Source of the DNA: Chara braunii
Lineage: Eukaryota > Plantae > Charophyceae
Length of the DNA stretch: 63,940 nt
Assembly: GCA_003427395.1 (NCBI GenBank)
Contig: BFEA01000042.1
Location: 1,988,048-2,051,987, forward strand
Direction: 5' to 3'
The notes under the pieces: generated by a model
What the model saw: only the letters and a program-made list of their open reading frames with translations
What the model was told of the DNA's origin: nothing
Databases searched by the model: none
Made by a program: the position numbers and the translations under genes
In this document: one piece after another, positions 9,201 through 38,947 of the stretch
Numbering within the stretch: position 1 is the stretch's first letter
How the letters are laid out: every line of letters starts with the position of its first letter

Positions 9201-12200
9201 TTCGTGAAGACACGCGTTGCAGACACTCGCAATGCTTGCGAGTTTGTCCAGACCACCGGCGAACGAAACTGGGATCCCAAACATGACATGTATTGGAAAT
9301 TGTCGGGGAACAGGACGGAGGTTTGGGACTTCCTTTTCCAACCCCGACCGCCTGGTCCGACCGACCTCGAATACAGTCGACGGAGAAACCTCGTGTTCGG
9401 TGTGCTCAATGGGTACCACGATGCACCCAGGGAGTCTGTCTCGCATTTCCTGAGAAGGCTGGAGCACGTTTACTTCACGCTGGCCGAACCGCTCACCCTC
9501 GAAAACTACTAGTCACAGTTTGACGAGGAGGACCATTTCGACGCTGAAGACAGGGAGGAGCTGAGCGACTCCGAAACCTTCGATTTCGAGTCCATGCCAC
9601 TTCCTCGAGGGGTTGGAAAGGTTGGTGATGAAGAGGAAGGTGGCCCTCGGAGATATAGCACGTCCCCTGCCGGTTTGAAGCGTGTGTTTCGGGGTGAACC
9701 AGTCGACAACCAATCGTCTGATGACGGGGACGAAGAGAGAGACTATGATCACGAACCTTGTGACAGGCTCCCTGAGGACCACGACACCGAGAAGAATGAC
9801 AGACTCTTCTTCTTCGGCAAGCATCACCGGTTCATGGTGGAGGATGTCTGGGGACACAACGTCGTCTGGCACCCGAGGATATTCCAACCTGCTGTGAAGA
9901 ATGGAATGTGGGTCATAGCAATGAAGGAGGCCGATGGCAAGTGGAGTGGACTGAAGAGACAGGGAACGGGTGCATTTAAAAGAACGGCGAGACATGCTCT
10001 GGTGGAGCATTTGAGTCTTATGAACCCCGAGAGGAACGATCCGTACGTCGCTGCGTATGCAGTACAAAAGCTAAATGAGTTGTACGCCAACAACATGTTG
10101 GAGTTTCGACCGCCTTTCTACACACTCGAAACAGCACCGTCTCGTGGCATTGACTGGCGCATGCCGCAACCTCCGTCGGGCGGTCAGCATCTGGGAGGGG
10201 GTGGAGGAGGAGACGAAGGAGACGGCGGAGGTGGCGGAGGAGACGGCTCACAGTTTGTCGGAAAGGGGACGGGCGAGACATCGTCGGTAGAGAAGGCGTC
10301 TGACGGAAAGGGGTCAGGCGGAAACGACTCGGGCGGAAAGGGGTCGGGCGGGAAGCGGTCGGGCGGGAAGGGGTGGGGCTAAAAGGGGTCGGGCAGGAAG
10401 GGGTCAGGCGGAAAGCGTAGAACGTCCGGGAGTCCCAAGTATATGGAAACTGACCCCCACTGCGTAGGGAGTCGAGATTCCGACATGCGAGACGAGGTCA
10501 CCCTGAGGTCTGATCAAGTGCCAGTAGATTCGCACTTGTCTGCGAGGACTTTGTTTCCCGTTGCCGACGAGAGTCCATCCCGCCGTGCGCAGTAGAGGTC
10601 TCCTGTGCTCAACACCTTGCTCCTGAAAGAGGGCGCGTCTTCGTTTTGCCTGGAGGGCGGGATGCCTGCATTGCGAAGGAGCGAAGGTGTGACCTTCGGT
10701 TCCCTCGTCTCGGGCGACCGCCACAAACTCCGAATACATTCGGATTTGCTGACGTCGCCCTCCGCCATAAGTGCTCCTCACGCAACAGTTCCGCGGGGCC
10801 AAGAAAATGTGATGTCCTGCCCCCCGCATCTTCTGTTGGACACAGGGTTACCCTGCTCGCCTCGTTCTCATGTGTTGAGACTCGAGACTGGCGGTCTCGC
10901 GACGTGCTGAAGGGGGCCGCTGCAGGAGTGTTGGAGACCGGGGGTGGCGAGTACGAACGTCGTACTCTTGGGGAAGAGGAGTGCTCTCCGGGAACGTGTG
11001 CTGTACATCGGGAAGAGGAGACTCAACGCTGGCAGTCTCGCAAAGTGTTGGAGACCGGGGGTAGCGAGTGTGAATGCCATGCTTCAGAGGGTGCATCCGT
11101 GGATACTAACAGCGAGAGTGCAAGAGCTCTAGGGGAAACGCATGCTCTACGGGGGGGAGAGGAGTCACGAAGGATGCCGGCTCGGGAAGACGTGAAGGGG
11201 CTCCACGCACGAGCGCTGGTGATTGGGATGTCCGAAGAGGTTCTGCACAGTCGGTCGGCTATGGCCACGACGCGAGAGGGTGTCCTTAAGGGAGGTCAGT
11301 GGACGTTCGTGCAAGCTCCCGTTCTTGGTGACGATGAAGACGAAAAAGAACCCGCGGTGGAAGCTCGGGTTCATGGCGATGAGAAAGGCGGAGAACCCGA
11401 CTATCGGCATCCAGACGGATCCACAGCGGAAAAATGGTGATTCGTCGCCCACCCGTTGCGGTGAAGAACAGGGTGGTCAAGCGTCTGTCCTAAGCACCGC
11501 TCGGGGAGTGGTGCTTCATGAAGCCATAGAGTTGGATGATGACTCGGCTGCCACCGAGCTGGTTAGCGACTCAGGCGTGGCCGAGATGCAGAACGTCGAA
11601 TCCTCCGTGGAAGGCGGTGAGGTGGCTGTCAGCATCAAGATGGATCGAGAGCGGAAATATCATGATTCTCCGTCCACCCGTTGCGGTGCTGAACAGGGTG
11701 ATCGAGCATCTGTCCTCAGTACCGGTCGGGAAATGGTGCTTCATGAAGCCATCGACTTGCCAAGCGACTCAGCTGCCACCGAGTTGGTTAGCGACACAGC
11801 CGTGGCCGAGGTGCAGAACCTCGAATCGTCCGTGGACGTTGGCGCAGTGGCTCGACAGGAGGGCGAGTTCCCTCAAAAGGCTCCTGAGCACGGTAAGATT
11901 TGTGAATAGGAACACTCGCATACCTGTCACTAGCCAGCTCTGTGTTCGTCCAAATTGATGTCATGGGCTAATGTACCTTTTACCACTTGTTAAAAAAAAG
12001 TTTGTGGGCTGTGGGTTGTTTTCCATGTTCTACAGGTGTGAGGTTGTCAATGTCCCTGCCCATGAAGCCTGCAAAAGCCGTGAGCGAGAAGTGTCTTTCA
12101 GGGAGGTCATTGGCCGCTTTACCGAAGAAGTCGTCAAGTGTAGGGTTGTTTAAAAGGGTCCAGATGCCTCGCCTTTCCCAGAGAGCTGTCAGGGTTCTGA

Positions 12201-12436
12201 AGGCTTGTGGAATAGATAAGGAGGAAGGTTTGCGGAAACATTTGGCTGCGTCCATTTAAAGCGTTACTGCTTTGTCTGATGGGTCTGATGACGATGCCAA
12301 ACGAGGTGTCTTGAAAGACCCGCGTCCTAAGTACATCGCCAAGGACACATTCAACAGTCGGGGATACAACTTTTCTGGGAAAAGGGCAGACGATTCATAG
12401 CCATTTCGCCCCGGTGATTTTGACCACTCATCACAC

Positions 12437-13193
12437 TTGTTCGTGGGTGTTTGTGCAGTTGGGGCTACATCATATTTTCGCGTTCCATTACCTGCTGAGG
12501 AGCTTAGCGCTACGGACTTGAGAATGTTGCGAAACGTTTGTGGAGATTTCAGCAACGGCCACGAGGTGGTATCCTCGGTTCGCAAAGGGGTCAGTTTAAT
12601 TCCGTTGAGCAGAAAAAGTCTTCAAACTCTTGTTCAAGGGGAATGGCTTTCCGACGAGGTGGTGGAGTCGTACTTGGCCTTGCTTGCCAATGCTGCGTTG
12701 TCTGGGTGTCCCTCTCTTTACATTTTCAGTCCCTTTTTCTATACCAAGCTCGTCCGTGGCGGCTATCGACATGATAGGGTTGCGAGATGGACAAAAGATG
12801 TGGATATCGTACGAGATGATCTTGATTCCTGTCCATAAACATGGAGTGCATTGGACCCTATTGTATCTCCGAGAACAACGGCTGGAGTATTACGACTCCC
12901 TCGTACAAGACGATGACGGTTTTTCTTCCGATGTGATTGCGAACTTCACGCAATACCTCCGTGACAAAGCAGTTTGTCATTATGGTAAAAAAACGAAAGT
13001 GGATCTCCAGGAGCCCAAGGTGGTTGTTCGTGGTGTCCCTCAACAATTGGACGGGTCGAGCTGCGGTGTTTTCATGCCCACCTTTGCTTCATTTTTTGCA
13101 CGCGCCTGTCCGTCACCATTTCCGATAGCCCAAAGCGACATTCCAAACATCCGGTTGAGGATTGCGGTGGACATACTCCAAGGCGCTAAATGA
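12437..13193 (+). pseudogene. Ulp1/SENP-family (peptidase C48) SUMO protease, frameshifted near 12810
   Basis: GEWLSDEVVESY, FSPFFYTKL, RWTKDVDI, LIPVHKHGVHW, EYYDSL and PQQLDGSSCGVF show the His-Asp-Cys triad and oxyanion Gln. Confidence 0.9.
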
Positions 13194-14799
13194 TACCACT
13201 GTTGTTAAAATACACGTAGTTTTTTTTTCGAAATGTCCTAAGCAAAAGTGCGAATTTATTCTCACTTGATCTACCAGTCGGCCGGTTCGAGCTGTGCTGT
13301 TGTTTTGATGAGGTACCAGATTGCAGTGGACGTTCTGGTCAAGTAAACGCTTAGGTGTCGATGTGAATATCCCAGCCTCGTGCTGTAGCAATTTTTTAAG
13401 GGTTCTTCATTTCGCGGAACCTGTCATCTTTGCTCGTACGCCTTTCGGCAACGCCGTGCTGCCTTTGTTTGTTTTCGGGTTCTTCTCATTGCTTGCCGCG
13501 CAACATCAACTAGAGGGTTGTAGCGGACGCTTACGTGAAGTACAATCTTAGATGCCGATGTAAATATCCCAGCCACGTGGTGCAGTATCTTTTAAGTAGA
13601 CGCTTAGATATGGGATGTGAATATCCCGCCTTTCAGACCGCGGCAGCACCGTGCTGCGTTTGTTCGTTTCGAGGTTGTGCTGCTCTGTTACTCATGGGAC
13701 GTCTTCGGCCTCTTGTAAACATTTTGCACTCATGCTCTTAATGAAAGATATCGACGATTTATTATTGGTCGCCAAATTGTTTCCTGCTTATCTCTTTCAT
13801 TCGCGAGACTTTGTGGTGTGAAAGCCCCTCTCCCCCGCCCCACCCCGACCACCCAGCTTTCATATGCTTTGGTTCGCCCTTGTTCTGCGTGTGCCGCCCC
13901 GTTTTACGGTTCACCCCCTCTGCTTGTCTCCACTGAATGTTGTCTGTTGGTTTCTTATGATAGTTGCGAACTTGTTCTCCATTCAGAAACCAATTGTCGC
14001 CAGAATGTATGTGTGCTTGAAATTGTTTTACGGATTCAGCGGTGCACTAAATCATTACCAATTTTGTTGTCCCTGGAATACATCTCGTGCTCTCCACGGA
14101 ATGCTGGTGGTTGTTTTCGTATGAGAAATGCGAACATATTCGTACTTTGGATGCTGTACATTTGTGATTGAACTGTTGGTTCCATATGAGAAATGCGAAC
14201 ATATTCGCACTTTGGGTCCATGTACTTTGTGATTTTTGGAAAGCCTCCGTGCACTTTGCAATGTGGGATTGTATGATATTTTGCGTTCAATGATTTTTTG
14301 AAACGTCTCTGTGTGCTTTGCAATTTGCCATTGAATGAATTTTTTGCATTGAATGGTTTCTGGAAACTGTTAGTGTGTTGTGAGACTTCACCTTTGAAAA
14401 AACACTAGGCAACTTGAGATGTTTTCACCTCGATGTTTGCGATGTCTCTGTGTGCTTTGCAATTTGACTTGAGATGTTTTCATCTCGATGTTTGCGATGA
14501 CAAGAGATACTTGTATGAATGGATATGAATCTTCTACACAGAAAGATTTGATGGCGTTTTCAACCTGGAATATACAAATGACGAGCCAATGTCCATATTA
14601 AATCGTCGCGCTGATGGATTGCACAACTGCTTCTCCATCAAAGAGCGAGTTCAATCGCACTTCTGGTGTGAGCCCTGAGCAATTCCCTCGCACTTTGCTT
14701 CACGTTGAAGAGGGGATCGAACGCACCGCCGGTAAGCACCTGCACATCACAAAACAAGAGCACGTCCCAATTGGAACATCGTCGGGTTTTTGCGATGTC

Positions 14800-15880
14800 G
14801 ACTCCCACATGATGACTACACTGAACAGCGGTAGGATGACCGCTCTGCCTCTCCGATGTGGATCTAACGGTGGATTACGTCAAATCTGCTCTCATAGATC
14901 CGCGTCAGGGATGGGGGACGGGATCCGACCACAGTTTGCTTGTAAGGCATCATATGATGTGTCGATATAACCGACATCCAGAACTGCTTGGTGAGCATCT
15001 AGTGCTACGCCAATAAGTTCCAAGCACGACAGCAAAGTCCCCTAAGAGTGTTCTTTGCCGGGTCCTCACCTCATCGACTCTCAAGAGGACTACAACCAAC
15101 AGCGGTAGGATGGCAGGTCCGCCTATCCGATGTGGATCTCACGATGGAGTGCGAAACTCTGTCCTCAAATATTCACACCGAGTAGAAGGTCCTGCAAGCA
15201 GCAACTGCTTGCTTGTAAGGCATCTTATGATGTGTCGATATGACCGACATCCAGAACTGCTTAGTGAGCATCTAGTGCTACGCCAATATGTTCCAAACAC
15301 GGTAGCAAAGTCCCCTAACAATGTTCTTTGCCGGGTCCTCACCTCGTCGACTCCCTCAAGATGACTACAGCTGACAGCGGTAGGATGGCAAGTCCACCTA
15401 TCCGATGTGGATCTCACGGTGGAGTGCGAAACTCTGCTCTCAAAGATCCACACCGGGTAGAAGGTCCTGCAAGCAGCCGTTGCTCGCTTGTAAGGCATCT
15501 TATAATTTGTCGATATAACCGACATCCATAACTGCTTGGTGAACATCTAATGCTACGCCGAAAAGTTCCAAAAACACGGCAGCAAACTCCCCTAAGAGTT
15601 TTTTTTGCCGGGTCCTCACGTCATCGACTCCCTCAAGATGACTACAGCTAACAGCGGTAGGATGGCAAGTCCACCTATCCGATGTGGATCTCACGGTGGA
15701 GTGCGAAACTCTGCTCTCAAAGATCTATACCGGGTAGAAGGTCCTGCAAGCAGCCGCTGCTTGCTTGTAAGGCATCTTATGATGTGTCGATATAACCGAT
15801 ATCCAGAACTGCTTGATGAGCATCTAGTGCTACGCCAATATGTTATGAACACGACAGCAAGGTCCCCTAAGAATGCTTTT
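14800..15880. repeat. ~275-277 bp tandem repeat, 4 copies
   Basis: The unit start (A)TGACTACA..ACAGCGGTAGGATG recurs at 14812, 15086, 15361 and 15638. Confidence 0.9.
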
Positions 15881-16040
15881 AGCACTGGAGTCCTCTGACC
15901 GCCGACTGTTTGGCACTTCGTGAAGGTTGACACTTCTTGAAGGTGGTCGGCCACTTCTTAAAGGTGGTCAGTCACCAAACAGATCACGACCTGACATCAA
16001 CCTCGATAACTGCGAATTGACTCGTTGTTCAACTAGACTC

Positions 16041-16204: not shown

Positions 16205-16242
16205 CTGTCTCTTATACACATCTAGATGTGTATAAGAGACAG
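16205..16242. other. Nextera mate-pair junction adapter (two inverted Tn5 mosaic ends), an assembly artefact
   Basis: Exact CTGTCTCTTATACACATCT+AGATGTGTATAAGAGACAG, next to an N gap. Confidence 0.98.
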
Positions 16243-18242
16243 GTGTACCCCAGCGCAGCTCGGCTATGGCTGCCTGCTCCTTTCTGCCTCCGCTCGCCAC
16301 CGTTGTCGGCGCGAATACCCTTACAAGGGTATCCGCCCTGGTTTTTTGCAAGTGACAGAAAATAAGTTCAATTGAAGTTTGAAAACACCGCACGAGCCGT
16401 GGGAGCTGTTGACTGAGAGGTTGGTTGTAGTGTCCGAGAATAGAGGGTGTGTGGGCGCGCAGGTTTGAGGCGCGCATGTTTGTTCCCTCTTTGATTGCGA
16501 TGGAAGGCTTGACGTGGATTCCGGCCAGCGTGATTCATTATAACAGGTGTTTGCCTTGATTAAGCCGATTAACCTAGGAGGGACGCTCCATTCTATGCTT
16601 CCGTTTGGTACGATGGAGGGGTTTAGTGAGCCAGCGCGGACTTTAGTCGAATCCAGATGATGGGCCCTGATGGACGCGGCTAAGTAAGGGATAGTCGCGG
16701 CACGGTCGGTAGGCCTGCGCGGACTTGTCGAGGGTTGCGGGGGTAGGTGTAGGCGGAGAAGATAGTGTAGGGGGCCTCGCAGCCCTGGACGGCCGCGCTA
16801 TACTATTTTATATAGAATCTTGGGCTTGCTAGTACCAAGCTTGGGCTTAGCCCTATTGGTTATGGTATTAGACTGACACGGCGGAGGTTTGGGAATCGTG
16901 GCCGGTGGACTGCAGCAGGGGAGTGGTGGAAAGTTACGAAGAAATCAAGGGGTTGAGGGCCCGATGAGCCATCCCTTTTGGTTTTGCAAGAGGATGCGAC
17001 CCCGGGCCCGACCCGTGATACTGGCGAGGTGCCAGTAGTTCCCTTGTTTTCCCGGGACCCGCCCTATTTTTATTTATTTTCCTGCCTATTTTATTTTATT
17101 TTTATTTGATTTTTTAGTTTTTTAGTTTTTTATTTTTATTTTTACTTTTTTTGTTATTGCCGGTCCCGTTCCATGCTGGGACTTGGCACCGTGTTCGTAT
17201 TAAGAGAGAGATGAAGGGCCGATGGCAAAAGGGCAGACCAACGACCGGAGTATAAATCAAGGAGCAGCACCCAGTCACCCGCTGATTCCTATGAAAGCCA
17301 TGCGGAAGCGCTATCTCAGCGCATTGTGCAAAGAGGCCAGCAGTGCGGGCGCTAAGGCTACAAGCAGTTAGGAGTGACGAACAGCAGGCAATGGGAGAAA
17401 AGATCCGGACGGGATCCTGCGCAGCATGCATGCGCAGTAGGGAAGGAAGCAGCGGGCGTGGGTCTGACGGGCAATAGCAAAAAGGGGTAGGGTGTAGGGA
17501 CCGACGGGCGATGGGGTGGAGCCGCTAAGACTGCCAGATGCCAGTGCGGCGGTAGGAAAAGTGACGGGCAAAGAGAGAGAGAGAGAGAAAGAATGGTGAA
17601 GGGACTGACCAGGCAGGGCAGCGCTGAGCAACATCGGGTGGACCGGGCGGCCTGGTGCAGCGAAGGAGAGTTACGGGAGGAAACGCACAGAAGGTGAGTG
17701 GATAGTGAACGAACCTGTACTAGGAAAGGGACCAGGTGCGTGCACTTTTGGAGAATAGGCATGGCGGGTTGCGGATTTGGGCGCAGTCGGAAAGATGGAG
17801 CACGACCGATTCTTTATGGAATCGGGCAAGAGAANAACCAAAATGGNGGTTTATTGACCGCGNGAATCCNAGTNTGAACTTAGTTTTAGTGGTAGGTTGT
17901 TAGATTAGGAGGTTAGTAGAGAAGATAGTGCGCGGAGCTATGGCTGAAGGTGGGAAGGTGAGGGAAGAAAAAGTGTGAATCTTCCCCGTTTCTTGATGAA
18001 AAGGGGCGGGGAAAGATTCGTAACGGGGTTTTTTTGGGATCACGAACCCGATTCTGGAGTTAGGTCTAGTTATGAGTTAGTAAAATAGGTGGTAGAAAAG
18101 AAAGGCACTGCGGGAGAGCTATGGCAGAAAATTTGAAGGGCAAAATTTTACTCGACCCTCATTGAAACCAAGCGGGAGAAAGTATGGGATGACGATTTTT
18201 TTTACACCTATGAGTCAGACTATGAGGTGAGTCTTGAGAGAG

Positions 18243-18897: not shown

Positions 18898-19182
18898 GTG
18901 TTGGTAGCGGCGAGCGAACCGGGAATAGCCCAGACTGAAAAATCCGGGGGCTCTGTTGCCCCCTGGATTGTAGTATTGAGAGGCAACCTCTGCAGGGCCG
19001 TGTGCAGGTTCCCTGGAAGGGGACGCCGAAGAGAGTGACAGCCCCGTCGACCGCCGGACCCTGCTGCACAACGAGGTGTTGTCGAAGAGTTGATCTCAGG
19101 TCGGGCGGGAGCACCGGCCCAATTCAAGCATATAACTAAGCGGAGGGAGAGAGACCAACGAGGATTCCCTTGGTTACAGCGA
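18898..19182 (+). pseudogene. Two degenerate, out-of-order fragments of the 25S/28S rRNA 5' end
   Basis: GCGGCGAGCGAACCGGGAATAGCCCAG..CCCTGGAAGGGGACGCC..GAGAGTGACAGCCCCGTC is followed by a restart at 19091, GATCTCAGGTCGGGCGGGA..AAGCATATAACTAAGCGGAGG..GGATTCCCT. Confidence 0.85.
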
Positions 19183-20942
19183 CCTCCTTTGATGGTCAGG
19201 TTTGGAAATTTGGTGGGGAACGTCAACGCATTTTTGCCTTTCTTGGACAAGCGAGTTGAGGGTTGCACTGGGCGAGGGGAGTCTGTTACAGCGGCAGTGG
19301 TGGCGTCTACTGCAAACTGTTGTGGGCATTACTGATACGAGCTGCTGTAGTTTTGCCGTGAACAGTCGGGTGACTACGGGAAAGGCTGTGCAGAAGTACG
19401 GCACGAAGACTGTGGTGCAGTGGACCGTGGGCAGAGGACAAAAGACTGCGACGGTCGATCCTGTTACAGAGATGCTACAGGCTGTGTAAACGGCGAAGGG
19501 GCCACATAACTGTGGGGGACGCTGCAGATAGGAGTAAGGCTCGAGACTTATATGCTACTTGATGTATTGCCTCGTTCTGTGTTTGAGATATAGAGTGCCC
19601 CGTCTGTGCTCTGGCGCTGCCTCGCTACCTGGTTCCCGCCGGTCTGAGTGAGAGCTCTTGCGAATTGCTGCCGTTGCTGGGAGTGGTGTGCTACCATCGC
19701 TAAACGCAGAAAACGGCCATTTGCGCCCGGATTCCTGTCGCAGCAAATTGTCTGCAGCAGTTGCTGCTAGACACTACTTTGGGCTGCATCTTTGATGAGG
19801 AGTGGGGAGTGAGCCAAAGGGTTGGAGAACTTACTTGTTGGCCGGTGTGTTGCTCGGCCGGGTGATGAAGAGTAGTGAGCACAAACTAGGAAGGGACAGG
19901 GCTGATGCAGACTGTGTGGATTGTGTAAGCTGCTGCAGACTGTGTAAGCCGCGAAATCCGTGCAAACTGTGTTAACTGTGTTGTCCGTGTATCCTGTTAC
20001 AGGCTGGGTAAACTGAGAAGGGCTACAGACAGTGTAACTGTGGAACTGTGTGAGCTCTGTAGGTTGAGCAAAAGGGCAGTAGACTGTGTAACTACATATT
20101 GCTGTGGAACTATGAACGACAGACTTTTTGTTGTTGAATTACTACTGCTGCTACTGGCCGTTGTTGTGCGCCACTGTGTGTTGTTGCGGAATTATTTGTT
20201 GGGCACTGCTGTTGCGTCAAGGGGGCAGAGTGTGAACTGCTGCTACACCTAAAGACCATTACACGCTGTCAGAGCGGCCGTGACCGGGCGAAGTTTGGAG
20301 AGGGGATCAGGTTGTACAGGGAAGGCAAGTCAATGCTGCGAGTTGAAAAGTCGGCAGGAGTTGGACCTTGGCAATTTGATCCGGAGATTTGTTCAAGCTG
20401 TTACTTTTGGCCGCCATTGCGGGGCCCTGAGGAGCATCAAGGTATCAAGGCCCTCTCCTGCTAGTCTGAGAGCACCTCTCTTGGATCTGAGGGACTCAAA
20501 CTTTCTCCATCTGCCTTTCTAAGTCTAAGTCTAGTCTAATCTGCTTCTGAGAGGAAGGCGGCAGGCGGGATTGCAACCCGTAATCCGTGCCAAGGCCTTT
20601 GTGGGAGGTACGCCCCACCGATTGAGGGAGCTCTGCCGGAACTCAGGAGGAGTCCTGGAGGCAGGGAACTGACAGGTAACCATTGCGTTTCCCTCTATAA
20701 ACCCAGTTATAACCCATATCTATATTTCCCATTGCATCGCCTGACTGAATATATGGTGTGAAGCCCTATCCTATTTTTGGTTTGACTTTCAGGACACTGA
20801 ACCAGATTAAGTAAAGGAATGTTTGTCAAAGTTCAGTTTCAACTTTAGTTGCCTGTGTGAAATCAGACTTGTAAATGAAACTACATCTGGGAAAGGCAGG
20901 GTGGAGGACTGATTTGCATGATGGTTGACAGGGTCGTTAGGG

Positions 20943-21890
20943 CTGGGAGGTCCTCATAAGTTTGGGGAGGCCCAGTGCTTTGTTTATTTTGATCTACACG
21001 GAGCATCCGACGCGTCCCATAAGTTTGGGTGGTCTGATTGCTTTGGTGGCTGGGATGTCCCCATAAGTTTGGGGAGACCCAGTGCTATGAGTTTTGCCTG
21101 AGGGATCAGACACGTCCCATAAGTTTGGGTGGTCTGATTGCTTTGACTTGTTAGGGCTGTTTGTGATTGACTTTTCAGGAGTCAAGCACGTCCCATAAGT
21201 TTGGGTGGCTTGACTGCCTTGTTTATTTTTGGTGTTTTACCTTGTTTTTTTGGCATTGAACGAGGAGGTCTGAGCGAGTACCGTAAGTTTGGGTGGCTCA
21301 GCTTCTTCCTGCTGGGGATCGAGAGAAATGAACCTGACTAAGGACAAGGCACGTCCCATAAGTGTGGGTGGCCTTGGCCCATGCCACGCACATACAAACT
21401 AGAGAGAAAGTGAAACAGGTGAAGAGCCAGGCACGTCCCATAAGTTTGGGTGGTCTGACTCAAAGTCTTGCACATGCTGGAACCCAAAGGTTATAACTTG
21501 GCTATATCATATTACTATTCTATTAGGAACGATCTAATCAGATCGTCCCATAAGTTTGGGTGCTCTGACTGTAGCCTATCACAATGTGAAGAGAGTACAA
21601 CTAAGAATAAAATTTGTGGTAGTCTGGGGCAGGCTGAACTTAAGTTAGTTCAGTTATATGCAGCCTTAAAATGGAAAAGGGGAAGACAATTATATATAAT
21701 CTGGTTATTTTAAACAGTTAGGGCGACTACAGTGGTCTAGTCATATGCCCAAAGAAGAGAGAAGTAGTCGTGCCCTCTGTCCGTGTATATTCATTGGCAA
21801 GTCAGGTTCGTCCCATAAGTTTGGGTGTCCTGACTCTCTGCCTGGCTAAGTAAGGTTCGTCCCATAAGTTTGGGTGGTCTGACCTTATGC
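20943..21890 (+). repeat. Array of 11 covarying hairpins with a CCCA-TAAGTT-TGGG apex
   Basis: Copies at ~20943, 21006, 21050, 21106, 21180, 21270, 21345, 21428, 21537, 21800 and 21851. Lower stems differ but pair, e.g. GTCAAGC/GCTTGAC, CTGAGC/GCTCAG, CAAGGC/GCCTTG. Confidence 0.9.
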
Positions 21891-22164
21891 CTTATGTAAG
21901 CAGGGTAAACGGTTTAAATCATGAAAAACTATGAGCTATTGGCTGTTCAGATGAATTGGGATGGTGAAAGTACTTACCTTTGTGGTTTGGCTTGCATGTG
22001 CCTGAGTGAGATCACTACCTAATATGAGTTTCAGTTTCATAGGTAGTTGCTTTAGATGCTCGCCACGTTCTGGAGCGATAAGAGTTAGTTTCAATTCCTG
22101 CATTTTCTGTAGTATTTTTTCTTTACTTAGGTCAATTCCCGCATTTTCTGAAATCTTTTCTTAT

Positions 22165-22730
22165 ACTTGGCTTTGTATAAATCTTGGCAAGCTGCTTTCT
22201 CTACGGGAAGCGATGCCGAAATTTTTAAAAAATCCGAGGAGTTAGTTAAATTTTGACTTGTCAAAAGTTCAGTTTTGTTTTGTCTCATATATGACTTAGT
22301 TAAAATCTGGGAAGTCTCCTTTTCTAAAGGGAGTGCTGCCCAAATTTTTGCTAATTCAGAGAGTTAGACAAAATAGAACTTTGCGAAGTCAAAGTTACTT
22401 TCAAACTCTGAACTTAGTTTTGTATAAATTTTGGAAAGACACTTTTCTAGAGGGAGTGCTGCCGAAATTTCTACAAAATTAAGGAGCTAGTTAAATTTTG
22501 CCTAAAGTTGAACTCAGACTGTTTTTGGAGTTCATACGTGACTTAGTTAAAATCTGGGAAGTCTCCTTTTCTGAAGGGAATGCTGCCCAAATTTTTGCTA
22601 ATTCAGGAAGTTAGACAAAATTTAATTTTCCAGCGTTAAAAATTTCCTTCTGATTTCATATTTGGGTTTATATAAATTCTGAGAGGGCACTTTTCCTACG
22701 GGAAGCGCTGCCGAAATTCCCCTGTTTTCA
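22165..22730 (+). repeat. Five alternating ~123-bp units, each a long hairpin containing GCTGCC(G/C)AAATTT
   Basis: Example: TTTGTATAAATTTTGG..CACTTTTC-TAGA-GGGAGTG..CCGAAATTTCTACAAA at 22420-22478. Confidence 0.8.
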
Positions 22731-24974
22731 GTGGAATTAGGTTATTTTCGACAGGTGGCGCTAGAGAGTGTTATATGGAGGTGTGCTATGGAGGTTTATC
22801 CCCCATATGCTGATGATTTTAACCTGGGCATTTGACCTATCTTGTGTTACAGGTCCTTTGGTTTGTCTGATTCAAGGTCAGGACTAGATTCAGCTTGATC
22901 CCTTGAGGATCATTATCTGTTATCACTGATAACAGGTTGGTTGCCGATTCGTCGGTTTACGACTCAATTCTAGCTTACCCTCCACACCCATCCTAAAAGG
23001 TTTTAGCCCTGGTGATTTTCTTTGTTTCGTTATGGTTTCACTCGGACTTTTATTGAATGACCATTTAACAAAGGTACTCAGTAATTTTATTAAGGTTGGT
23101 TGGACAGGAGGTTTGGGGCTTGCATGGCTAAAGTGAGGGGTATGAGTGTTGAAGATGGTTGGGGTTGACTCCGTGTAGTGCGTGGGCGGTTGATTGACTC
23201 GTTGGTGTGATTCGCAGGTATGTGCTATGAATCAGGTTTTGGATGAGGTTGTCTGGGATCACATGTATACGTATGGTTGTGATGGACCCCCCATGAGACT
23301 GTGAGAAGTGATCGTCACATACTTCCCCCTGTTATATATATGTATATATGGGTATACTTGGGATGAATATTTGCATTGGCTAAGGGGTCCCGTATTAAAA
23401 GTCTGCTCAGGGGTTAAGACTAAGAGGCGTAGGGAAGACCCTTCCCTTTCATTTGTTTTACTTCTTAAAGGATTTTCTTGATCGGACGTTAGTCCTGGGC
23501 CGGGATTCGAGGTCCTTGTTGAGGACATCCCAAGCCCTAGGCTTTGCAGAAAAGGGGTTTTCCCTCGCACAGAGCCTATTTGCCTTGCCTATCGAGACTC
23601 TCAGACCAAAGGCCGGAGGTCTCGCGGCGGCTGCCCGACTATTCCTTCAGCCGTGCAATGTCGGGAAGGATTAGATCCTCACGACACCTCGAGTCTGACA
23701 CTTGAGTATCATAAGCAGTACCCGGATCCACGAGTGACCGCTTGACTATGGGCACTACATAGTACGCCATCGTTGCGACTGCATGCGTACGCCTGCATTG
23801 CGGGTTGGTATGAGATAGGTCCTCAGCTGCGCGACTTAATACTAAAATCCCGCGCGCGACGTCCTACCGCCCTAGTGTGTAAAAAGTTATGGGACTACAA
23901 GGGGACTGACACATATGGGCGAATGTTTGAAATTGTTATAGGCCGCTAACGCCGCGCGAAAAAGGGAGGGTATCCCAGGGCTATGATTTTGTTTACTAAG
24001 CGGGGAGCCTTCGGCCTATTCCTTATCGTTTGCTCTTTGGAGTTTTCATAGTTGGACGTTATAGTCCGTGGCAGCCGTCAAAGTCAAACCCCTTGATGTT
24101 CGACTGCCACGACAGCTCAAAGCTGTCTACTCAACCCCTTTGCACAGGGTGCAGAAGAGGGAGTGGTCTTCAACCGTGCATGGCGGTTGTCTAGCGTCAA
24201 GAGATTAACCCTCAAGGCGCGTGTCAGCCGACACTTGAGTGTCGAATGCGACCCTCGCGATTAACGGGGACCGCGTGAGTTTGGGTACCACATGACCCGC
24301 CATCATTTTGACCACTTGCGTACGTTTTGCATAGCAAATCGATATGAGTCTGCCCTACGTCCGCCAGGATTTAAATTAAGTCTCGCACATGACACCTATC
24401 CGATTTCCATATCGGGAAGTTATGGGGCGGCTACCGAGGGGCTAGGAGCATTGTCGCGTTGTTTATATTGTGTTGCTTCGTATTTGTGTGTGTAGGTTTT
24501 ATTGTTGTGTTCGTAAAGTGGTATGCGCGTGGTGTGTGGGATGCGTCCTAGTCGACCGACGACGAGCCGCGCTTGGGACTTCAGCCCCCCATGATGCCGG
24601 TTCGCGTATGGGTCCGATAGAGGCGTATTCCTGCGCGTATCCCCTATGCTACAGCGAATGAGAAACGCCCTCGGCTGGTCCACCTCTGCGATTGCAACTG
24701 ATTAGCTTTCGTACTGTGGACTGGTATCTCGGCGGGGATACGCCCACCGAAGGAAGGTGACAGCTCCCGTAAGGTGTAGGTAAGCTGTGCCTCGCGTAGG
24801 CCCTATCCTGTCGTAGGGGCTCGCGAGAGGTATGGCTGGCGCACTCGGCCGGAGCGTCTTATGGAAGCTCCATGTATATTCGTGACGAAGGATTGTTAAC
24901 CAACTCCTGCGTGACGTGGCGGGGAGGGTCTCGCGCTGCCCTGGTGCGGTGCCGGACCGACGTGCACGACACCG

Positions 24975-25355
24975 TTCCTAAGAACCCGTCGTTGCAATCT
25001 CATATAATGTCTGATACCCGAAACTTTTTGCTAAAACGGGTCGACAACGGGTATGTCATGGGTGATTGAATCCAGTTGCAATCTCAATTTATGCGGCCCG
25101 GCTAGCGAACCGGCACACAAACCGACGCACCACGAACATAGTATTAAAAATAAAACGTGTACATACACACACGAAACAACAGAAAACAACATAACAACAG
25201 CGGCCTCCGCTCGCCACCATCCCTAAGAACCCGCCGTTGCAATCTCATATAATGTCCGATGCCCGAACCTTTTTGCTGAAAGGGGTCGACAATGGCCATG
25301 GGTGATCGAATCCAGTTGCAATCACATATAATGCGGCCCGGCTCACAAACCGGTG
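24975..25355. repeat. ~135-bp direct duplication
   Basis: CCTAAGAACCCG.CGTTGCAATCTCATATAATGTC..GCGGCCCGGCT occurs at ~24976 and ~25222. Confidence 0.85.
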
Positions 25356-25819
25356 CACTGGGGGGAGGGGGCTGAAGTACGTATCCTGCTCACTACGAAC
25401 TATGCAGTGCCCATAATCAAGCGCACAATTTGCGTGTTGATGGGCCCGGAGCACTCGAACAAACCTGGAGTTTATTTTGAGTTGTCGAGCGAAGGCCGCT
25501 CCAAAAGGCTACCGTGAAGATAGCCTACAAGGGAGAACTTCGAACACCGTTGGTGTGTTAGGGTGGTTGAGGTTGGGTGGGGTGTGTGTGTGTGCGTGTG
25601 TGTGTGATGGGTCCAGTACTCCAAGCGCTGGCAGTTGACCCATATCACTGCCCACTTAGCAACACTTATTAATGATTGTTTCGATTTATTCTTATTTATG
25701 TCGCTCCAACATGAATTCCGGCTTTGTTACAAAAAGTGAACAATCAAAAGGTTCACTTTTAACGAAATGTGTATTTGCCACAATTGGCAGGAGACAAAGA
25801 CACAGTTGGTGCCAACTTA

Positions 25820-28550
25820 CCTATTTTGACATTGTCATTCGAAGACTCTGACAGGTTTCTAGCAAAGGGACCAGTTCCTTATATGTCTCCTCCAGGAAAT
25901 CCTCTGAATGGCCAGGGAATTTTAGTATGAGATTTTTGAGTAGCCATTCTGCTACATTTTGGACATCTGATGCTTGGGCTCCTGGCTGTGCCCGTGATGG
26001 GTCAGTATTGGTGTTTCTTTGTGGAGGAGGTGCGCCTGGGACTGGGTCCAGTTCCATCGGTTGTAGCCCAAGACATCTTTCAATGGATCAAGGTCTATTG
26101 GTTCCGGTTCTTGTTTGTTGCTTGACCCATTTGACGCGCTCGAAGAAGCTTCCAGGACATGTTTTCTTCTACCATCAGTGTTTTTAGTCTCCTTGTCTTG
26201 TTGATGTTTTTGACTTTGTTTCTTTATTTGTTCCGCTGCTATGCTTTGTATTCTTTCTTCCTCTTCCCCCTCTTCTTTGCTCAGGGGGCTGAAACGATTA
26301 CCTGTCGGGATGTATGAAGTTGTCGTTGGCCCAATCTGACCCTTCTATTTGTTTTGGATGACTCATTTGGTTGTTTACCCTTATTTCCATTCCCTTGCCT
26401 CCGAACTTTATCTCCAACAGGAGGTGGGGATTGGTTTTTGGGAAGTTGGTAAGACCGAACTTGTCGATCAGGACCGTGTTGTAATTGTTAATTCGGGTTT
26501 TTATTCTGATGGTGGTCTTTGTGACTGGCGAGGGTCACGCCCTGCTTTCCCAGATCCATCTTATGGGCTGACCGGTTGAAGAGAGGTCCTCCACATACAC
26601 CCACCTGTTGAAGCCTGGTGTACTAGGCAACCATCTATTTGCTCGGAGAGGGTCTCTTTTCAACATATTTTTCGTACTTACTTTCTTTTTGTGTAGCATC
26701 GTGTTCGGGTTCGGTGAGCGAACCCGAACGTTCGGGACCGAACACGAACGAGCGCCGAAACTGTCCGAACGCGAATATAACAATATTAAAAAAAAAAAAA
26801 AAAACGTTCTCCAAAAAATCTGAAAAAATATATGTTATGTAAAATAATAATACAAACAACTTTTGCCTTGGAGGTATGGTCAAATTCGTAACCAAACTCG
26901 AGTTAAAAATGAAAAACCAATTTTTTATTTATTTATTTTTTAATATGTTTGGCCAAACACGTTCGGGTGGCGTTCGACAAAACACCCGAACATATTCGGA
27001 CGTTCGAAAAAGCTCCGAGCATGTTCAGTGTGCTACACAACTTTCTTTTGAGGGTGTAGTGGACAGGTTGCTTAAGTGCAAAGATGTCCATATGCCCGAC
27101 ACTTATAGCACCAAGGTCTAACTTGTGTGTTGTGTGGATCCGATAAAACCTTTCCCCCATTTTAAATAAAATGATGTCGTCTAGGGAGAAGGGCTGGTCC
27201 TTGGGGAGGTCTAGTGCCAACATCACGTAGTCGTCCTTTTAGCCACATATGTTGGTAGTGGGTCAATGAAATCAACTATCTTATATTGTTGTCCGAAGTC
27301 ATGAATGAAAACTGCTTGTATCTCCTGTATCTCTATCGAGATGTATCTTAGTTCAACCCAGTAGTAGTCCCTCATCAATTGGTCTCTTCTTTCTTCTGGG
27401 CCTATCCTTTTTGGCAGCCAAGGATAGATACAGATATCGGACTGGTTCAACTGAAGTTTTCGCCAACTGTCCATTTTGCCTTTGTCCTATTCAAAAGACT
27501 AAGAATAGTGAAGACAGTCAGCGACATCGGTTGAATCAGGAAAAATTCTTGGACAGCCTCCGGATTGTCTTTTATCGTTTCTAGTATTTTACACAACCAT
27601 TTGATTTTGTCATTGACTGTTCTATATGCACTATCATCATAGAAGATCCAATTACTCTCGTGCTTAGTCTACTACTTTTTGTTCTAACTTGTCTACCGGA
27701 TATGATTTCATCATCATTTTTTTTCCTCCTTGGTCCACTACTTTTTATTCCGAAGGTAGAAGAAAAAGTGAGAGGAAATATGCATGTGCAAGTGATAGAT
27801 TCCTGAGAGGTACTTTGAGTTTTTCTGTAGGTAAACCCGATTCACTGACCGATGGTCTCAATAATATTATGGTTAGAGACTTACCTTCGAGACACTCCCT
27901 GACTCTCTTTGCCCATGATCATGGCAGGATGGTTGTCCTGTGAATTGTGCGGATTGGGTGGTCTGCTGGGATCATTGCGAAGAATCAGTTATGTCTCGTG
28001 TTCTTTTGTTTGCCTCTGACAATCTTTCTTCCTCCATCAGGACCCCTCCGTCCCCCTCACTCATTGTCATTTTCTGTGCAGGTGGTTCTTCAGATTCTGA
28101 TGATAATTGTTTCTCCTGCCCCTGCGTTGTTGTTGTTGTCACACTGTGTGTTTGAAAGGAGTGATAGATTTGTGAGAGGGGGAATGGTTGGGGGGAATGG
28201 GGAGAGGGGAGAAAAGGCGGTCCAACCATATTCGTTTGTTCCCCATCCCTCATTCCCAATCCATAAGGGTTATCATTCAGTGGGTTGTGTGTTGTTTGAA
28301 CCTGCATTGCTGCTGCAGTTCCCCCAGTTGTTGTTTTCGGTCAAATTTTCATATTCCTTGAGGTTGGGGATACTGGTCGTGCGTATGGGCAGGACCCAGC
28401 TGTTTGAACACATTGTGACGCATTGCACTCTGGTAGGAAAGGAGGGACCCTGCTCCTTTCGCCTTTCCATACCACGGCCTCATTTTGAAGGCAGTAACTC
28501 GTTCATAAATAATATGACGAGATTCTTAGGATGAAGTTATTTTGTGTTAT
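25820..28550 (-). mobile_element. Decayed L1-type LINE ORF1 region
   Basis: The minus strand near 27060-27117 reads PWCYKCRAYGHLCT*ATCP (CCHC knuckle) after a broken ORF and before a disordered tail. A pyrimidine-rich putative leader lies at 28600-29200. Confidence 0.55.
26690..27039. mobile_element. MITE (TIR TGTGTAGCA..TGCTACACA, 8-10 bp TSD ACTTTCTTTT)
   Basis: The flanks 26680-26689 and 27040-27049 are identical, and there are multiple CCGAAC/GTTCGG subterminal motifs. Confidence 0.85.
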
Positions 28551-31500
28551 GGCTTTCATATTCTAATTTCTTTCCTAATAATATTGTTGTGAATATGTAA
28601 TCTCGTAATGGTGAAGATTGGTGGAAAGGGAAGAAGGTAAGGCGGGGGAGGGGGGGGGATAGCGAGTGGGAAGAGGAGAGGAATCAGAGAGAGTGAGGTA
28701 GAGGAAGGAAGGGGTGAGGTGTCGATAATTTGCGTGGAGGTGGGTGGGAGCAGTGGGATGGAGCAGGGAAAAAATGTGTGATAGAGGAGGTTTGCGGAAC
28801 TTAGAAAAAGGTCAGGGGGAGCAAAAGACAATGTAAAGGAGGGAGGGTGAAGGTAATAGGAATAAAATGAAAATGAGGGGGAGGAGGGGTAGAGGTAAGT
28901 CCAGATGTAACGAGGGACAATGGGGGGGGGGGGGGGGGGGGAGAATAGGGAGAATGAGAATATGGTAGTTGAATTTTGTTGCTTGTGAAGATTGAAGACG
29001 CGCTTGGGAGATAATGATGAAAGGTAGGTACTACCTAGCTTTTAATTTATTATTGCTATGGACCTATGTATAAATAATATAAATATATTTAATTGTTCTG
29101 CTTTGGAACTTGGTTTCTTTGGCGTTGACTTGTGTACCCACTCAGGGGTGTTAAGGAGGGTAAGGTAGGGAAAGAAGGAAGAGGTTGAAAAAGAAGAAAA
29201 CACACCTATATTGCTGCTTTATATCCCGATTTGTATCTTGATGAAAATCCGATTGTATCTGTGATCCAACTATGCATCCACTCTTTGTCAATGGTTGAAC
29301 GATCCTCTGTCTTGAATGTATCTTTCCTCCTTTTTATCCTTATCCTCCTCTCCTTCCTTTCTCCTTCTTATCCTCCCTTATATTATGAGAGCGCTAATAT
29401 CCATACCAGCGATTATCATTCAATCTTACCATACGGAAACCGTTCAAGTCTGACAAGACCCTCCGCCTCATAATCCGCACGTCGGAATTTGCCCACAGTG
29501 ACCTGAAACTTGTCCTCTTTGGTAGAATAGTTATGTGCTTAGATGCTTCTCTCCTTTGCTGTGTATTGAAATCTTAATGATCGTGTCATTGTCCACCTTC
29601 CACTCTTCGTTTTCCTTTTGGTTGACTTCGTTGATCTCCCTCAGTGTTGAATAGCGTCAACCCTCCTACAGTCTCACACAGTACAGGCTTCGTTAAGACA
29701 AACGAGAAAGGTCGCGAAGTACTTCTTTTCGTTTTTGTGTAGTCTTGATGATCGTCCTCCACCATCCACACTTAGATATCCTTCAATGCTGACTACTCTA
29801 ACCTCTTTGATATGCGTCAACACTCCTATATGCTACCTCTGTCTACTCATCTTTACGACTTGTCGCCTACTCTGACGCATAAGCTCTCTGTGTGGACTGT
29901 GCCATCATCCTTTAACCACATTGTAGTCTAGCCAGTAACGTCAGTATTTGCCCACATTGACCTAATCTGGACCAGCTAGCATATCGAATCTTAATAACCG
30001 TGTCGGCGTCCACTACTCTCACTTCATTTCCTTGCTGTTTACTTCACTGATCTCCTTTCGGTGTTGACCAGCATCTATCCTCCTAGGTCGCACACGGTAC
30101 TAGCTTTGTTGTGACCCAAGAGAAAAGTCGCAAGATGCTTCGCGAAATCGAGTATCATCTATTGACGAGGCCGTCCTGAGTCATTTCCAACAGCCACGTC
30201 AACCTATAACATGGTTAGAGTTAGCGCCCTTTCCAATTGTGTGTGTGATAAGCGACAAAGTCTTCCCTTCTCTCTAGATTTGGTATGATCAATTGAAATT
30301 CTTGATGGTCGTGTCGTCCCACACCATCCACACTTCGATATCCTTAAGGCTGACTTCGTTGTTCTTCTTTGGTGTTGACCTGCGTCAACACTCCAATGGT
30401 CGCACACAACACTATCGTCGCTGTGACCAAGGAGACAAGTCGTGAAATCTTGAAGCACCTGTTGATAAGGCGAGACCGTCTCAGATCAACTGAATCAGCC
30501 ACGTTAGTCTGTGACGTGGCCAGAGCTAGCACCCTATTCAATCTCGTGTGCGTTAAGCAACAACAACCTACTCGGTCTGACCAATGTACTATTTTTTAGT
30601 TTTTGAATTTTAACTCGAGTCTGGTTGGGAATTTTGATATGACTCCCATGTAAAATTTGTTTGTATTATTATTCTGCATAAAATATGCGTCCTCCCTGCG
30701 TATGTGTACCATACGTTACCTAGGTGTACATAGTGTACAAAAGGATTCACTGAAGACAGTAGCCATGAGGGTAGCTCGCACTGGGACTTTCTTAACTGAA
30801 AATTTAAAATTGAATTGAAAACTCTAAATACAAAGTAGTTGAAGTTTACATATCACAGTGAAACCACGTTGCACCAGCATGGGAGTACCGTGCTACAAAC
30901 CTTCTCCTCTTACTGCTCAGTCAGAGGGGGAGCATCCACTCTCATCTACCTTTATACCCAAAAAGATAACTCGCTCACCCGGTATCGTATCGCATGACAT
31001 TCGTGTACCGTGAAAAATGAAAATTTTTGGAAACCACGTTTTTCAGGTCAGACTTACTGCTACTGTTCTCACTTTCCTGCTGAGAGTTGTGGTCCTTAAG
31101 AATATTTGCAAAAACATTTTTTAACATAGATCCAGTGACGGGTTAAAAAATGTCATATTTTATCGAGTACCGATATAATGCGATATTCGGCCGCTATGCC
31201 AGAGTCTATCACCTGGTCGCATGTGATATTAGCTAAGGACAAATTTATCTTCACACAGTCTCCGGATTTTGTGTTAAGAGATACTGGACTCAGTTTCCAA
31301 TAGGTGTGGCTCACTGGCTCCCCACTTATAGATGAAGCAGCCGGGTAGGCAAGGCCTCAATCTCGGTGGTTCTCTTACCACTACCGGGATAGAGGCCTTG
31401 CACAAGGGCCTCTCAATCAGCACCTCTTCCTACCCCACTAGGTGTACCCGTCCCACCTGACCTCTTTCTCCTGGTAGGCCCACCCAGTCCCCTTCCTCCA

Positions 31501-34355
31501 ACCTCGGTCGTTTCTCCAGAATGGTATACCATGCTATGGGAAAACTCTCAATCATGTTTTCTAACATCGTCTGAGTTTGATGACAATACCTTAACCACCC
31601 TCTCATTTCGTCCGCGCTCTTCCAGTCCTTTGTATTTGGGACCAAAAATCTCCCACGCGCGGCACCCATGCTTTACCCAACCCTTCCATGGGGAGTCCGA
31701 AATGCATCTTACCGTTCCGTGGGAGTCCGTGACTCACCTATTTCCAAACAAAGGTTGTCTATAGACCTCCTCCCACCTGTTTGGTGTTGGCCTGCAGGGG
31801 ATTGGGAATTTTCTCCATGTCCTCAAGAAGAGCAACCAAAACTCTTCCACCGGATCTCCATTTCTGTATTTCCTCGGGATCTTTCAATATCTGTCCTCTA
31901 TCCAGATCATCCAGTTGACCTTGGGGGGGGTATCCAGGGCCAGGACTTCTAGATATGCCATGGCCATGGGGCCCAGGGGGAGGAGGGAGAGAAATCATGC
32001 CTGAGTCCACCGTAGACTCAGAGCCTGAAATTTGGTAGTGGGATCAATAATCCCCATCCCACCTCCAGCTTTGGGTTGGATTACCGAATCTCACGCTACT
32101 CAGCTTATCGCATGCATTATTCCGTTGTTTCCCCTCCACATAAAAGTTGCCAGTTGTTGTTTGAGGGCTCTCAACCCTTGCTTGCTCAAAGGCCACAACA
32201 CCGACGTGTACCGTGTTGATGCCAACACAACGTTGTTAATAACAAGGGCCCGTCCAAGAATCGACGTGTGTTTGTTGACCCATCCTGACAACTTGCCTTG
32301 CGTCGAAGCTTTTATCCAGTCATTGTTGGTAACCAGCTTGCCTCTCGCCATCACTGATGCTCCTAGAAACCGCAAGGGGGCCTTCGAAGGCAGCCACATG
32401 ATGCACGGATTTTCCGGGGGCCTCGCCCTCTGGTGGTGCAGCCACCACCCCGCCATGTTTTGTCGCAAGTTGACGGCCATGTTGGACAACCCACAAACGT
32501 GGTCCATTAGGTTTTGGATTTCTTCTATGTTGCGGGCGCTTGCTTCCATCAGAATATTGAGGTCGTCCGCGAAGAGAGAGCGGACTAGAACTGCCTCTTC
32601 CGGGAGCCCTGCGATCGTGATATACGTGATATTTTTATTTTCCCTCAAATTTGCCGACAAGGCCTCCATTATCACAACGAATAGGAAGGGGGCTATGGGG
32701 TCCCCTTGTCTGACCGATCGATGTAGGGTGAATTGTGGGGCCATTGAGCCATTTACCTGAACGCTGGTGGTAGCATTAGTGTGCAAGATGTTGATCCAAC
32801 GCCGGGACAACGGGTCAATGTTAATTTTTCTAAGCATTTGTTTAAAAAGAGTCAGTCGACATGGTCATAAGCCTTTTCAAAGTCAATGAAAATAATAGCA
32901 GCATTGGATCTGCCCCTTTGTATCAGTTTAAACACCTCGTTAACCAACATGATATTCTCTTAAATATTCCTGTTGGCCATAAAACCGGTTTCGACAGGGT
33001 GAATGATGTTCTCTAAGAGTGCCATTATTTTGTCTGCCAAGGTTTTTTAGAGCATTTTGTAGACCACGGTGAGAAGGGTGATGAATCTATAATTTTAAAT
33101 GTTAAGTTAGTCACATTTTTTGTGCAGCAGAGTCAAGACTCGTCTCCCCACTGCCTCTCCAAAACCACCGGCTTCCCACATATCTTGGTAAAAGTTTCAT
33201 AAGTCTGGTTAAGTTCATAGTCGTAATAGTCGTATTATCACAAAGCCAAACATCGAAGATGTTCAAACTTGCAAAGTATACAACATCATTGAATGTTTTT
33301 GTTTCAAAAAGATAGGAAGAATACAAGTTGGAGTGCGTCGCCGACGCGTTTCGATGGACACCGCCATCTCATTTGGGGGTTTCCCACCACCTCCCCCACA
33401 CTAGTCAAGCTCCCCTTCCAACCCTCTCTCGTCCTTCGCTGCAATAGGTCTCCGGAGACCATAAGCAGACTCGGTCGTTAGTCCTGACAATACAACACAC
33501 AATAAATGCTAATATAGTCTAAACTACCGGGTCACAAACCGCAAACCAAAAACACTTACTACGGGTCCACACCGCTTGGTCCCATGCCTGGTTCCGAACC
33601 GCGCCCGGCTACTCACAGAAAACGAAAAAAGTAAAAATGGAAATCCTGGCACAGTGCCAAGCGATCCGGGTACGACACTCACAAAAGAAACTGAAACGGG
33701 TCATGCTGGTTGGTCACCGCCAAGGCCTCCCTTGGTCATAAGCCGGGCCTGACTGCCTACTTCACAAGCCAACATAGAAACGACGAACTAGAAGAATGAC
33801 TGAAACGGTTCCGTCGCGGTGACGTGCTATCAAGGTACCCTATGTCCTAATAGCCGATCAAAGTCAAGTAACTGGACATTACTCCGACCACCTGACACCA
33901 ATCAATTAAGCAAAGAGAATGAAAGGTTAAAGCATAGTGACGTGCTGTCGAGGTACCCCTGTCCTAATATCCTAATAGCCAAACAAAACCAAAAGCTCTG
34001 TAATACTCCGACTCTGTCTGACACACAATCCAATCACGCAACACAATAGACAAATCGTAGTGGCGACTACAAAAATGGGCAAAGCAATGTCTACGCCCAA
34101 CTGTGTATCTTATCCTACTGCTGCACAAAACGCACAGTATATTGCCATATCTCGCCACGCCTCACCGCGAAGTGCTTCAGTACGCGATGGATTTTTTTTC
34201 TCGGAAAGTCCTTCTTCGCTAGCTCTCGTTTCAAAGTCAGAACCCGCTGAGGTATCTCAGACCGGATCGTGGTATTCCGGTCAATTTGATGCAGATATCC
34301 ACTAACCACGACGCTCTTTTGCCTTTTGCATCCCCAAGAAAGGAAGGATTGTCCA

Positions 34356-37209: not shown

Positions 37210-37215
37210 GGGCTC

Positions 37216-38670: not shown

Positions 38671-38947
38671 TCGACACCTCCCCTCAAAGTTCAATGCGTA
38701 GCCACCCACCACTACTCCACTCCGGCGATTCGTCGCAGTTCAACAGTTAACAGTCAACCGTCACCAGTTGTGTATACACGCTCACTCCACCCGGCTAAAC
38801 TGGACCCCAGCTACATTAACGTGCACAATACGTAATAGTCGTATTATCACAAAGCCAAACATCGAAGACGTTCAAACTTGCAAAGTATACAGCATCATTG
38901 AATGTTTCTGTTTCAAAAATATAGGAAGAATACAAGTTGGAGTGCGT

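Follow-up and report, generated by a model that had tools for sequence, protein, structure and literature searches.

The MS2/PP7 operator and the iron-responsive element share a common plan, in which a bulge (a purine or a single base) lies below a short stem, the loop is fixed in sequence and the stem sequence is free. Larger structured RNA modules that act in cis in RNA transport occur in the non-coding part of mobile elements: the RTE of IAP and the MTE of musD, both from LTR retroelements (described in passages of PMC12786077), and the retroviral CTE and RRE (PMC3342944 for the RRE) are each a single complex fold, and the RRE is multivalent. In plants, the recognition of retroelement RNA for export or packaging is largely unstudied and direct studies of such RNA export are lacking, in the account given by passages of PMC12786077; RNA recognition in the non-coding parasites of plant retroelements is likewise largely unstudied.

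Here we describe an array of hairpins with a UAAGUU loop in a 63,940-nt stretch of Chara braunii DNA (hereafter the window). The array resembles the MS2/PP7 operator and the iron-responsive element in its bulge under a short stem, its fixed loop and its free stem sequence, and differs from them in having another loop, in lacking an Rfam match and in forming tandem arrays naturally within a eukaryotic repeat. Like the RTE, MTE, CTE and RRE, it is a structured RNA module in the non-coding part of a mobile element that is proposed to recruit protein to the unspliced transcript, and multivalency is proposed for it as for the RRE. It would work like these elements or like an MS2 array; unlike the single folds, it consists of 12-16 small, separate hairpins in variable number and matches them neither in sequence nor in Rfam. 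We give roughly even chances to the reading that the array serves a retroelement, probably a non-autonomous one, as a multivalent protein-binding signal in its RNA, for packaging or export. More doubtful is the specific form of this reading, in which a dominant and so far unclassified family of mobile elements in a charophyte alga would carry a natural MS2-style array: twelve or more UAAGUU hairpins, interchangeable with one another, would along with a second hairpin family seed the assembly of a protein encoded by the element onto non-coding RNA several kilobases long. If this is true, the array would found a new RNA family, and no packaging or export code of such kind would have been defined before in the green lineage. 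A small (40-nt), repeated and well-defined hairpin with natural variants would give a direct handle on RNA recognition. The array is also a marker by which an abundant repeat family could be classified, and any new pair of hairpin and protein might find use for tagging RNA; were the array neutral or acting as DNA, the interest would shrink to repeat annotation.

The preliminary description knew of no such motif, and Rfam 15 gave no match to the array at gathering score. The sole Rfam match in the whole window, with the iron-responsive element, histone loop, ribozyme, snoRNA and miRNA families included, was a piece of LSU rRNA, and E-value searches of 20300-23300, 23300-25500 and 52000-59500 returned sub-threshold noise only. 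A literature search, which left most subscription papers and repeat databases outside its scope, found no description of a UAAGUU hairpin array; the family may already carry a repeat-library name. Viral collections (three patterns) and prokaryote genomes (one pattern) yielded 0 matches. We also considered 41 metagenome loci as relatives and rejected them: blastn detected none, the best covariance model score was 17.9 bits, and the loci are CRISPR-like repeats, minisatellites and iteron-like repeats. The hairpin tip of one such CRISPR-like repeat equals the B-type tip (see below) by coincidence.

Anatomy of two related hairpin arrays

The hairpins fall into two arrays, A and B, in which the following features were delimited.

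20943-21890, + strand: array A, 11 full units, loops starting at 20957, 21020, 21064, 21120, 21196, 21284, 21359, 21441, 21551, 21816 and 21865
21629-21659, + strand: twelfth, shortened unit of array A (covariance model, 19.5 bits, rough E-value 0.003)
55816-58125, + strand: array B, 14 curated units and further degenerate ones, broken by insertions, the largest at about 57140-57660

All 11 units that the preliminary description had placed in array A were located there by motif search, curation and a covariance model, and with the shortened unit the array holds 12. The core motif CCCATAAGTTTGGG, with at most two mismatches, matched 17 times in the window, always on the + strand and 11 times at 20953-21874, against 0.47 matches expected by chance from shuffled sequence. 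Array B is a diverged sister of array A and differs from it in register by one base; the covariance model adds a weak B unit at 56524-56563. The curated set used below comprises 25 units, 11 from A and 14 from B.

From the tip, a unit consists of the UAAGUU loop, a 4-bp apex stem, two more pairs and a lower stem of 7-8 bp; stems are 12-14 bp long, and an outer GGCA/UGCC stem is often present. A purine bulge lies below the two extra pairs, and array A has an additional U bulge above them. The asymmetric internal loop that had been described here is better taken as this combination of a purine bulge and two pairs (with the U bulge in A): columns 13-31 read CG in 8, UG in 6, UA in 4 and another combination in 1 of 19 units. 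The loop was rightly called near-invariant, with 146 of 150 positions at consensus over the 25 units and the exact sequence in 21 of them. Mean column identity over the same units is 59%, the fixed parts being the loop and CCC/GGG only. The apex stem covaries between the arrays, its closing pair being A-U in A and C-G in B, and the lower-stem sequences quoted earlier are present in the sequence. The complement of the loop, AACUUA, occurs twice in A and three times in B; we do not propose it as a kissing partner.

In the shortened unit at 21629-21659, the apex stem is absent and a 7-bp lower stem directly closes the UAAGUU loop, so that a unit without the apex stem still keeps the loop in a hairpin, which supports the view of the unit as a binding site. 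Together, the free stem sequence, the fixed bulge and loop, the variable number of units and this unit of stem plus loop only form the pattern of a repeated binding site. We propose that the hairpins on the + strand RNA of the element would act as a multi-site landing pad for a candidate protein, each stem presenting loop and bulge to it, and that the bound protein would pick the element's RNA for export, or for packaging and reverse transcription.

Units are irregularly spaced, at 44-265 nt in A and 38-767 nt in B. The spacers had been taken to be unrelated, but several linkers are related: early A linkers begin with a common U-rich stretch, and TRF detected tandem duplications of 100 bp and 49 bp in the array region. 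The units would have multiplied through tandem duplication, and a variable number is as expected if avidity, and not a single site, counts.

A palindromic motif that alternates with spacers is the trait that the array has in common with CRISPR arrays, and this repeat-spacer look, along with the CCCC-TAAGTT-GGGG tip of the metagenome CRISPR-like repeat, is what speaks for a CRISPR array or relic. The likeness is superficial, and every defining feature tested fails. The window is eukaryotic and transposon-rich, the scanned parts contain no cas match, the repeats vary outside 14 nt, spacing is irregular over 38-767 nt, and several linkers come from duplications; the metagenome loci with the CRISPR-like repeat match the covariance model over the 16-nt tip only (16.8 bits) and have no other common sequence with the window. 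We regard this explanation as practically negligible.

Pairing in the stems across units

We scored pairing on a curated alignment of the 19 of the 25 units that share the standard register (A1, A3, A9, B1, B2 and B4 were excluded for shifted or broken stems). This alignment was used in place of unguided ones: RNAalifold on loop-anchored or gappy alignments recovered just 2-3 pairs because A and B are offset by one base in register. In the lower stem, 99 of 133 cells are Watson-Crick and 118 of 133 are paired. Swapping arms within each array gave means of 71.1 +/- 5.5 Watson-Crick and 103.7 +/- 2.9 paired cells, and 0 of 50,000 swaps reached either observed value. A pair counter found that 86.8% of 266 cells pair in the standard register, compared to only 27-50% in slid registers, and that both sides change in 9 of 14 pairs, with double changes in 41 cells. 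None of 500 shuffles attained its score; of its five measures, two were within the shuffle range (pairs with a double change, 58/500; further pair types, 115/500). At pair 10-33, for instance, GU occurs in 8 units, GC in 6 and AU in 5, with none unpaired.

Because the units are kin, a tree-aware simulation was needed, in which both arms evolve independently on the unit tree, itself built from the same alignment. At 60, 80 and 95% transitions, the simulation produced 58, 63 and 70 Watson-Crick cells versus the 99 observed, a value reached in 0, 0 and 2 of 3,000 runs; for all pairs, the observed count was reached in 0, 3 and 80 of 3,000. These results bear out the earlier claim that stem sequences change in pairs while pairing is kept, as well as its corollary that neutral duplication would not produce such paired changes.

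A neutral by-product might nevertheless arise if an ancestral hairpin was multiplied by tandem duplication and its stems were re-paired via template switching at quasi-palindromes. Tandem duplication is evident here, and a transition bias alone renders many double changes complementary, although even 95% transitions fall short of the observed pairing in the simulation. Palindrome repair should moreover remove any bulge or G-U pair and would not hold the loop constant, whereas bulge and loop survive in two copies that are only 70-75% alike elsewhere. We consider this history improbable, and neutral duplication alone does not account for the stem pairing.

Variants in public reads, among those listed, mostly preserve pairing: at 20954, U-G becomes C-G, and pairing is also kept at 21143, 21214 and 21563. 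Variants at 21106 and 21137, each seen separately and not phased, would together convert U-A to C-G, and the variant at 21027 would disrupt one pair. Together, these data support selection acting on a single strand that folds into hairpins with a loop of fixed sequence; the array is a selected fold and is, as far as searched, undescribed.

Strand, nucleic acid and transcription

At column pairs 10-33 and 13-31, stem changes pass through G-U and not through A-C, with almost no mismatches, which speaks for + strand RNA. Over the 25 units, G-U combinations outnumber A-C by 29 to 10. With RNA energies, the + strand folds better in 20 of 25 units (-12.9 versus -10.0 kcal/mol), whereas DNA energies give weak hairpins that favour neither strand (-4.5 versus -4.3, + better in 14 of 25). 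Folding z-scores are similar on both strands, at -3.2 (+) and -4.7 (-) for A and -3.8 and -4.0 for B. After allowing for the per-base skew of C>T over G>A in reads, the G-U excess has a P of 0.04-0.12; it is not clearly significant, and mutational skew could supply part of it. In array B, one position beside the apex stem is mostly A-C on the + strand and would read G-U on the - strand.

The hairpins could instead form in single-stranded DNA, during rolling circle of the Helitron/HUH type or in the cDNA of a tyrosine-recombinase retroelement, and be bound by a transposase or helper, like IS200/REP or attC hairpins. A bulged stem with a fixed loop is the very form that HUH enzymes and integron recombinases read. 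DIRS elements, which use single-stranded cDNA according to passages of PMC7192593, offer a precedent, and both strands of the array fold well by z-score. Against this, stability under DNA parameters is merely about -4.4 kcal/mol per unit and G-U intermediates are frequent. Neither long terminal inverted repeats nor an internal complementary region were found in the element sequence compared, and Pfam gave no Rep-helicase, YR, helicase or recombinase match in the scanned element sequence. We regard a DNA-borne hairpin as a minor possibility.

Read strand was calibrated on the rRNA piece. The summed bin depth over the array was 17.2:0.8 for + versus - strand RNA in run X8 and 8.1:1.8 in X6, whereas X7, the deepest run, had about 1.9 times more - than + reads. 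The + strand transcription on which the earlier reading depended is thus seen in relatives, whose + strand RNA predominates over the array in two of the three runs with strand information. Expression levels are low, at 1-4x in X6 and X8, and the reads come from relatives at 80-95% identity, with 13 of 602 X8 reads at least 99% alike to the window. Two contigs of 1763 and 1178 nt (X9, X12, runs only guessed to be RNA) run from the upstream block through a shorter array with no GT..AG joint, and because they carry fewer units, the unit number varies between copies. One array-crossing contig continues for about 1.7 kb beyond 20412 on the left, where it does not resemble the window, so that read-through is possible. 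An intron was considered as well, since the homology between A and B stops at a GT donor-like site (about 20675), but it found no support: there was no GT..AG joint among those listed, and reads continue unspliced.

An RNA array with no packaging role might recruit a host factor that shields a long non-coding transcript (by nuclear retention, or against splicing, premature cleavage or silencing), or might yield small RNAs. The loop resembles a 5' splice-site core minus its first G, which 2 of 25 units have, and no spliced joint over the array was found among those listed. Only about five loop bases, however, could pair with U1. Processing into small RNAs, as the preliminary description had also suggested, is disfavoured: the stems are short for Dicer, and no stacked read starts or ends were seen, which is weak evidence as it comes from oligo-dT long-RNA libraries only. 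We judge such a host-directed function unlikely.

The host element and its neighbours

The preliminary description had missed that the array belongs, as one module, to a repeat element that is non-coding, high-copy and at least 5.7 kb long. The window contains two copies, A and B, for which we list the parts outside the arrays.

16290-18230, + strand: candidate further left part, homologous to 43510-46350, which lies in the same strand and order upstream of B
19250-20404, + strand: fast-diverging left part, homologous to about 54200-55306
20405-20678, + strand: non-coding block that is conserved and precedes the array, sharing 75% identity with 55307-55580
22150-22730, + strand: second hairpin family, five 125-bp repeat units predicted to form long rods with C(UACG/UAAA/UAGA/UGAA)G tips
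22850-23220, + strand: conserved middle block, 72% identical to 58859-59185
23420-24520, + strand: unit of roughly 550 bp in two tandem copies that have diverged, with one copy in B at 61460-62000
24500-24950, + strand: right-hand block, the most abundant, conserved and predicted to be folded; B counterpart at 61990-62415
55307-62415, + strand: element copy B, collinear with 20405-24950, with insertions at about 57140-57660 and 59360-61400
58370-58700, + strand: second hairpin family in copy B, three more units

The two copies are collinear, and their conserved blocks (20405-20678, the array, the 125-bp repeats, 22850-23220 and 24000-24950) are 70-75% alike. Comparison of the left flanks scored 181, while the best of 164 control windows reached 125.5; the flanks are thus homologous, which makes the element at least 5.7 kb long, and the pair 16290-18230 and 43510-46350 may extend it to about 9 kb. 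The second hairpin family, with eight units in total, has a folding z-score of -6.1, and at five tip pairs G-U exceeds A-C by 15 to 3 on the + strand. Folds of the other blocks, compared in two sequences only and therefore weak evidence, show G-U-tolerant changes. Summed contig depth in the DNA run X1, which is not a copy number, was 25-70 over 19348-20243 versus 5,300-51,000 in the array bins, and rose to 480,000 at 24500-24947. The family is abundant, with array-bearing relatives numbering roughly hundreds to thousands, and copies A and B themselves look decayed.

A coding function for the conserved blocks was rejected, as they have no codon periodicity and indels break the frame. Pfam searches of 24 ORFs, of all six frames of 12000-39999 and of long ORFs and selected pieces of 40000-63940 gave only RT, Ulp1 and weak matches, and neither Pfam nor searches for protein relatives detected a protein gene in either copy of the element. 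A minus-strand frame from an ATG shared at 20417 and 55319 had no relatives among 7993 scored, and another search returned one spurious bacterial repeat protein; an integrase-like look at 16300-16400 had no Pfam match. In the window, the same searches found no binding protein or autonomous partner. The element would likely be a non-autonomous retroelement, with its partner protein likely supplied in trans by an autonomous element (Gag/ORF1- or Rev-like) or by a host export factor.

LARD elements have a folded internal domain. They are non-autonomous retrotransposons with LTRs of about 5 kb (passages of PMC2851119), and like them the element is a plant repeat of several kilobases that is non-coding and high-copy and varies in its central parts. 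Unlike in LARDs, no paired LTRs were found in it, and combining left ends at 19900-20450 with right ends at 24800-25250 gave no TG..CA ends with shared target duplications, the true left end lying further left; the passages of PMC2851119 on LARDs describe no hairpin array. Two further repeats could be terminal repeats or chance: a 37-bp tandem repeat at 43314-43523 and 62400-62460, whose unit resembles B's right-end sequence, and a 16-bp sequence repeated exactly, in direct orientation, at 16286 and 25203. A diverged inverted relative of the 24280-24600 block adjoins the right end of A at 25056-25430, with a 150-bp duplication.

Chlamys-2_cBra, a Penelope-like element of Chara braunii, combines a zinc knuckle, GIY-YIG and RT (passages of PMC8557442). 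Two neighbouring elements in the window share this layout: their translations show RT, a GIY-YIG-like motif and a zinc knuckle, recognised by eye except for the Pfam RT and a weak zf-CCHC match, and the shared layout makes a charophyte source likely. They lie at 33222-39471 and 46733-52947, with a zinc-knuckle ORF and direct repeats of 600-640 bp; inverted repeats flank the latter, and near 52300 on the - strand a motif resembling a hammerhead was seen by eye but not reported by Rfam. Unlike Chlamys, the array element gave no match to RT or hammerhead, and Rfam, whose sensitivity is limited, also reported no hammerhead in the neighbouring Penelope-like repeat; a non-autonomous Penelope-like derivative may remain compatible with these results. 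In the supplement of PMC8557442, where line breaks could conceal a match, the unit motifs are absent save for two isolated 10-mers.

The window otherwise contains microsatellites, N gaps, LINE and Penelope-like RT fragments and a Ulp1-bearing element. A degenerate 5' piece of LSU rRNA at 18901-19169 (269 nt) is head-to-tail permuted and lacks the upstream spacer, parting from pre-rRNA reads at 19090; we had considered a ribozyme or retrozyme for this 269-nt unit and rejected it in favour of the permuted rRNA piece. Further LSU pieces, partly duplicated, lie at 44577-45135, and all may be template-jump captures by RT. The permuted piece near A fits RNA-templated capture, weakly, and may be a separate insertion. 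A large element at 1-15900, likely a DNA transposon, has unannotated ORFs at 5590-11909, a Ulp1 peptidase at 12630-13193 and tandem repeats of 225 and 277 bp. A sequencing-adapter-like palindrome beside an N gap at 16206-16243, found also near 37600, is an assembly artefact that cuts off the context. Finally, an AT-rich inverted-repeat element family is present at 59360-61400, 26520-27200 and 30560-30700, and its copy in B is inserted within a TA microsatellite.
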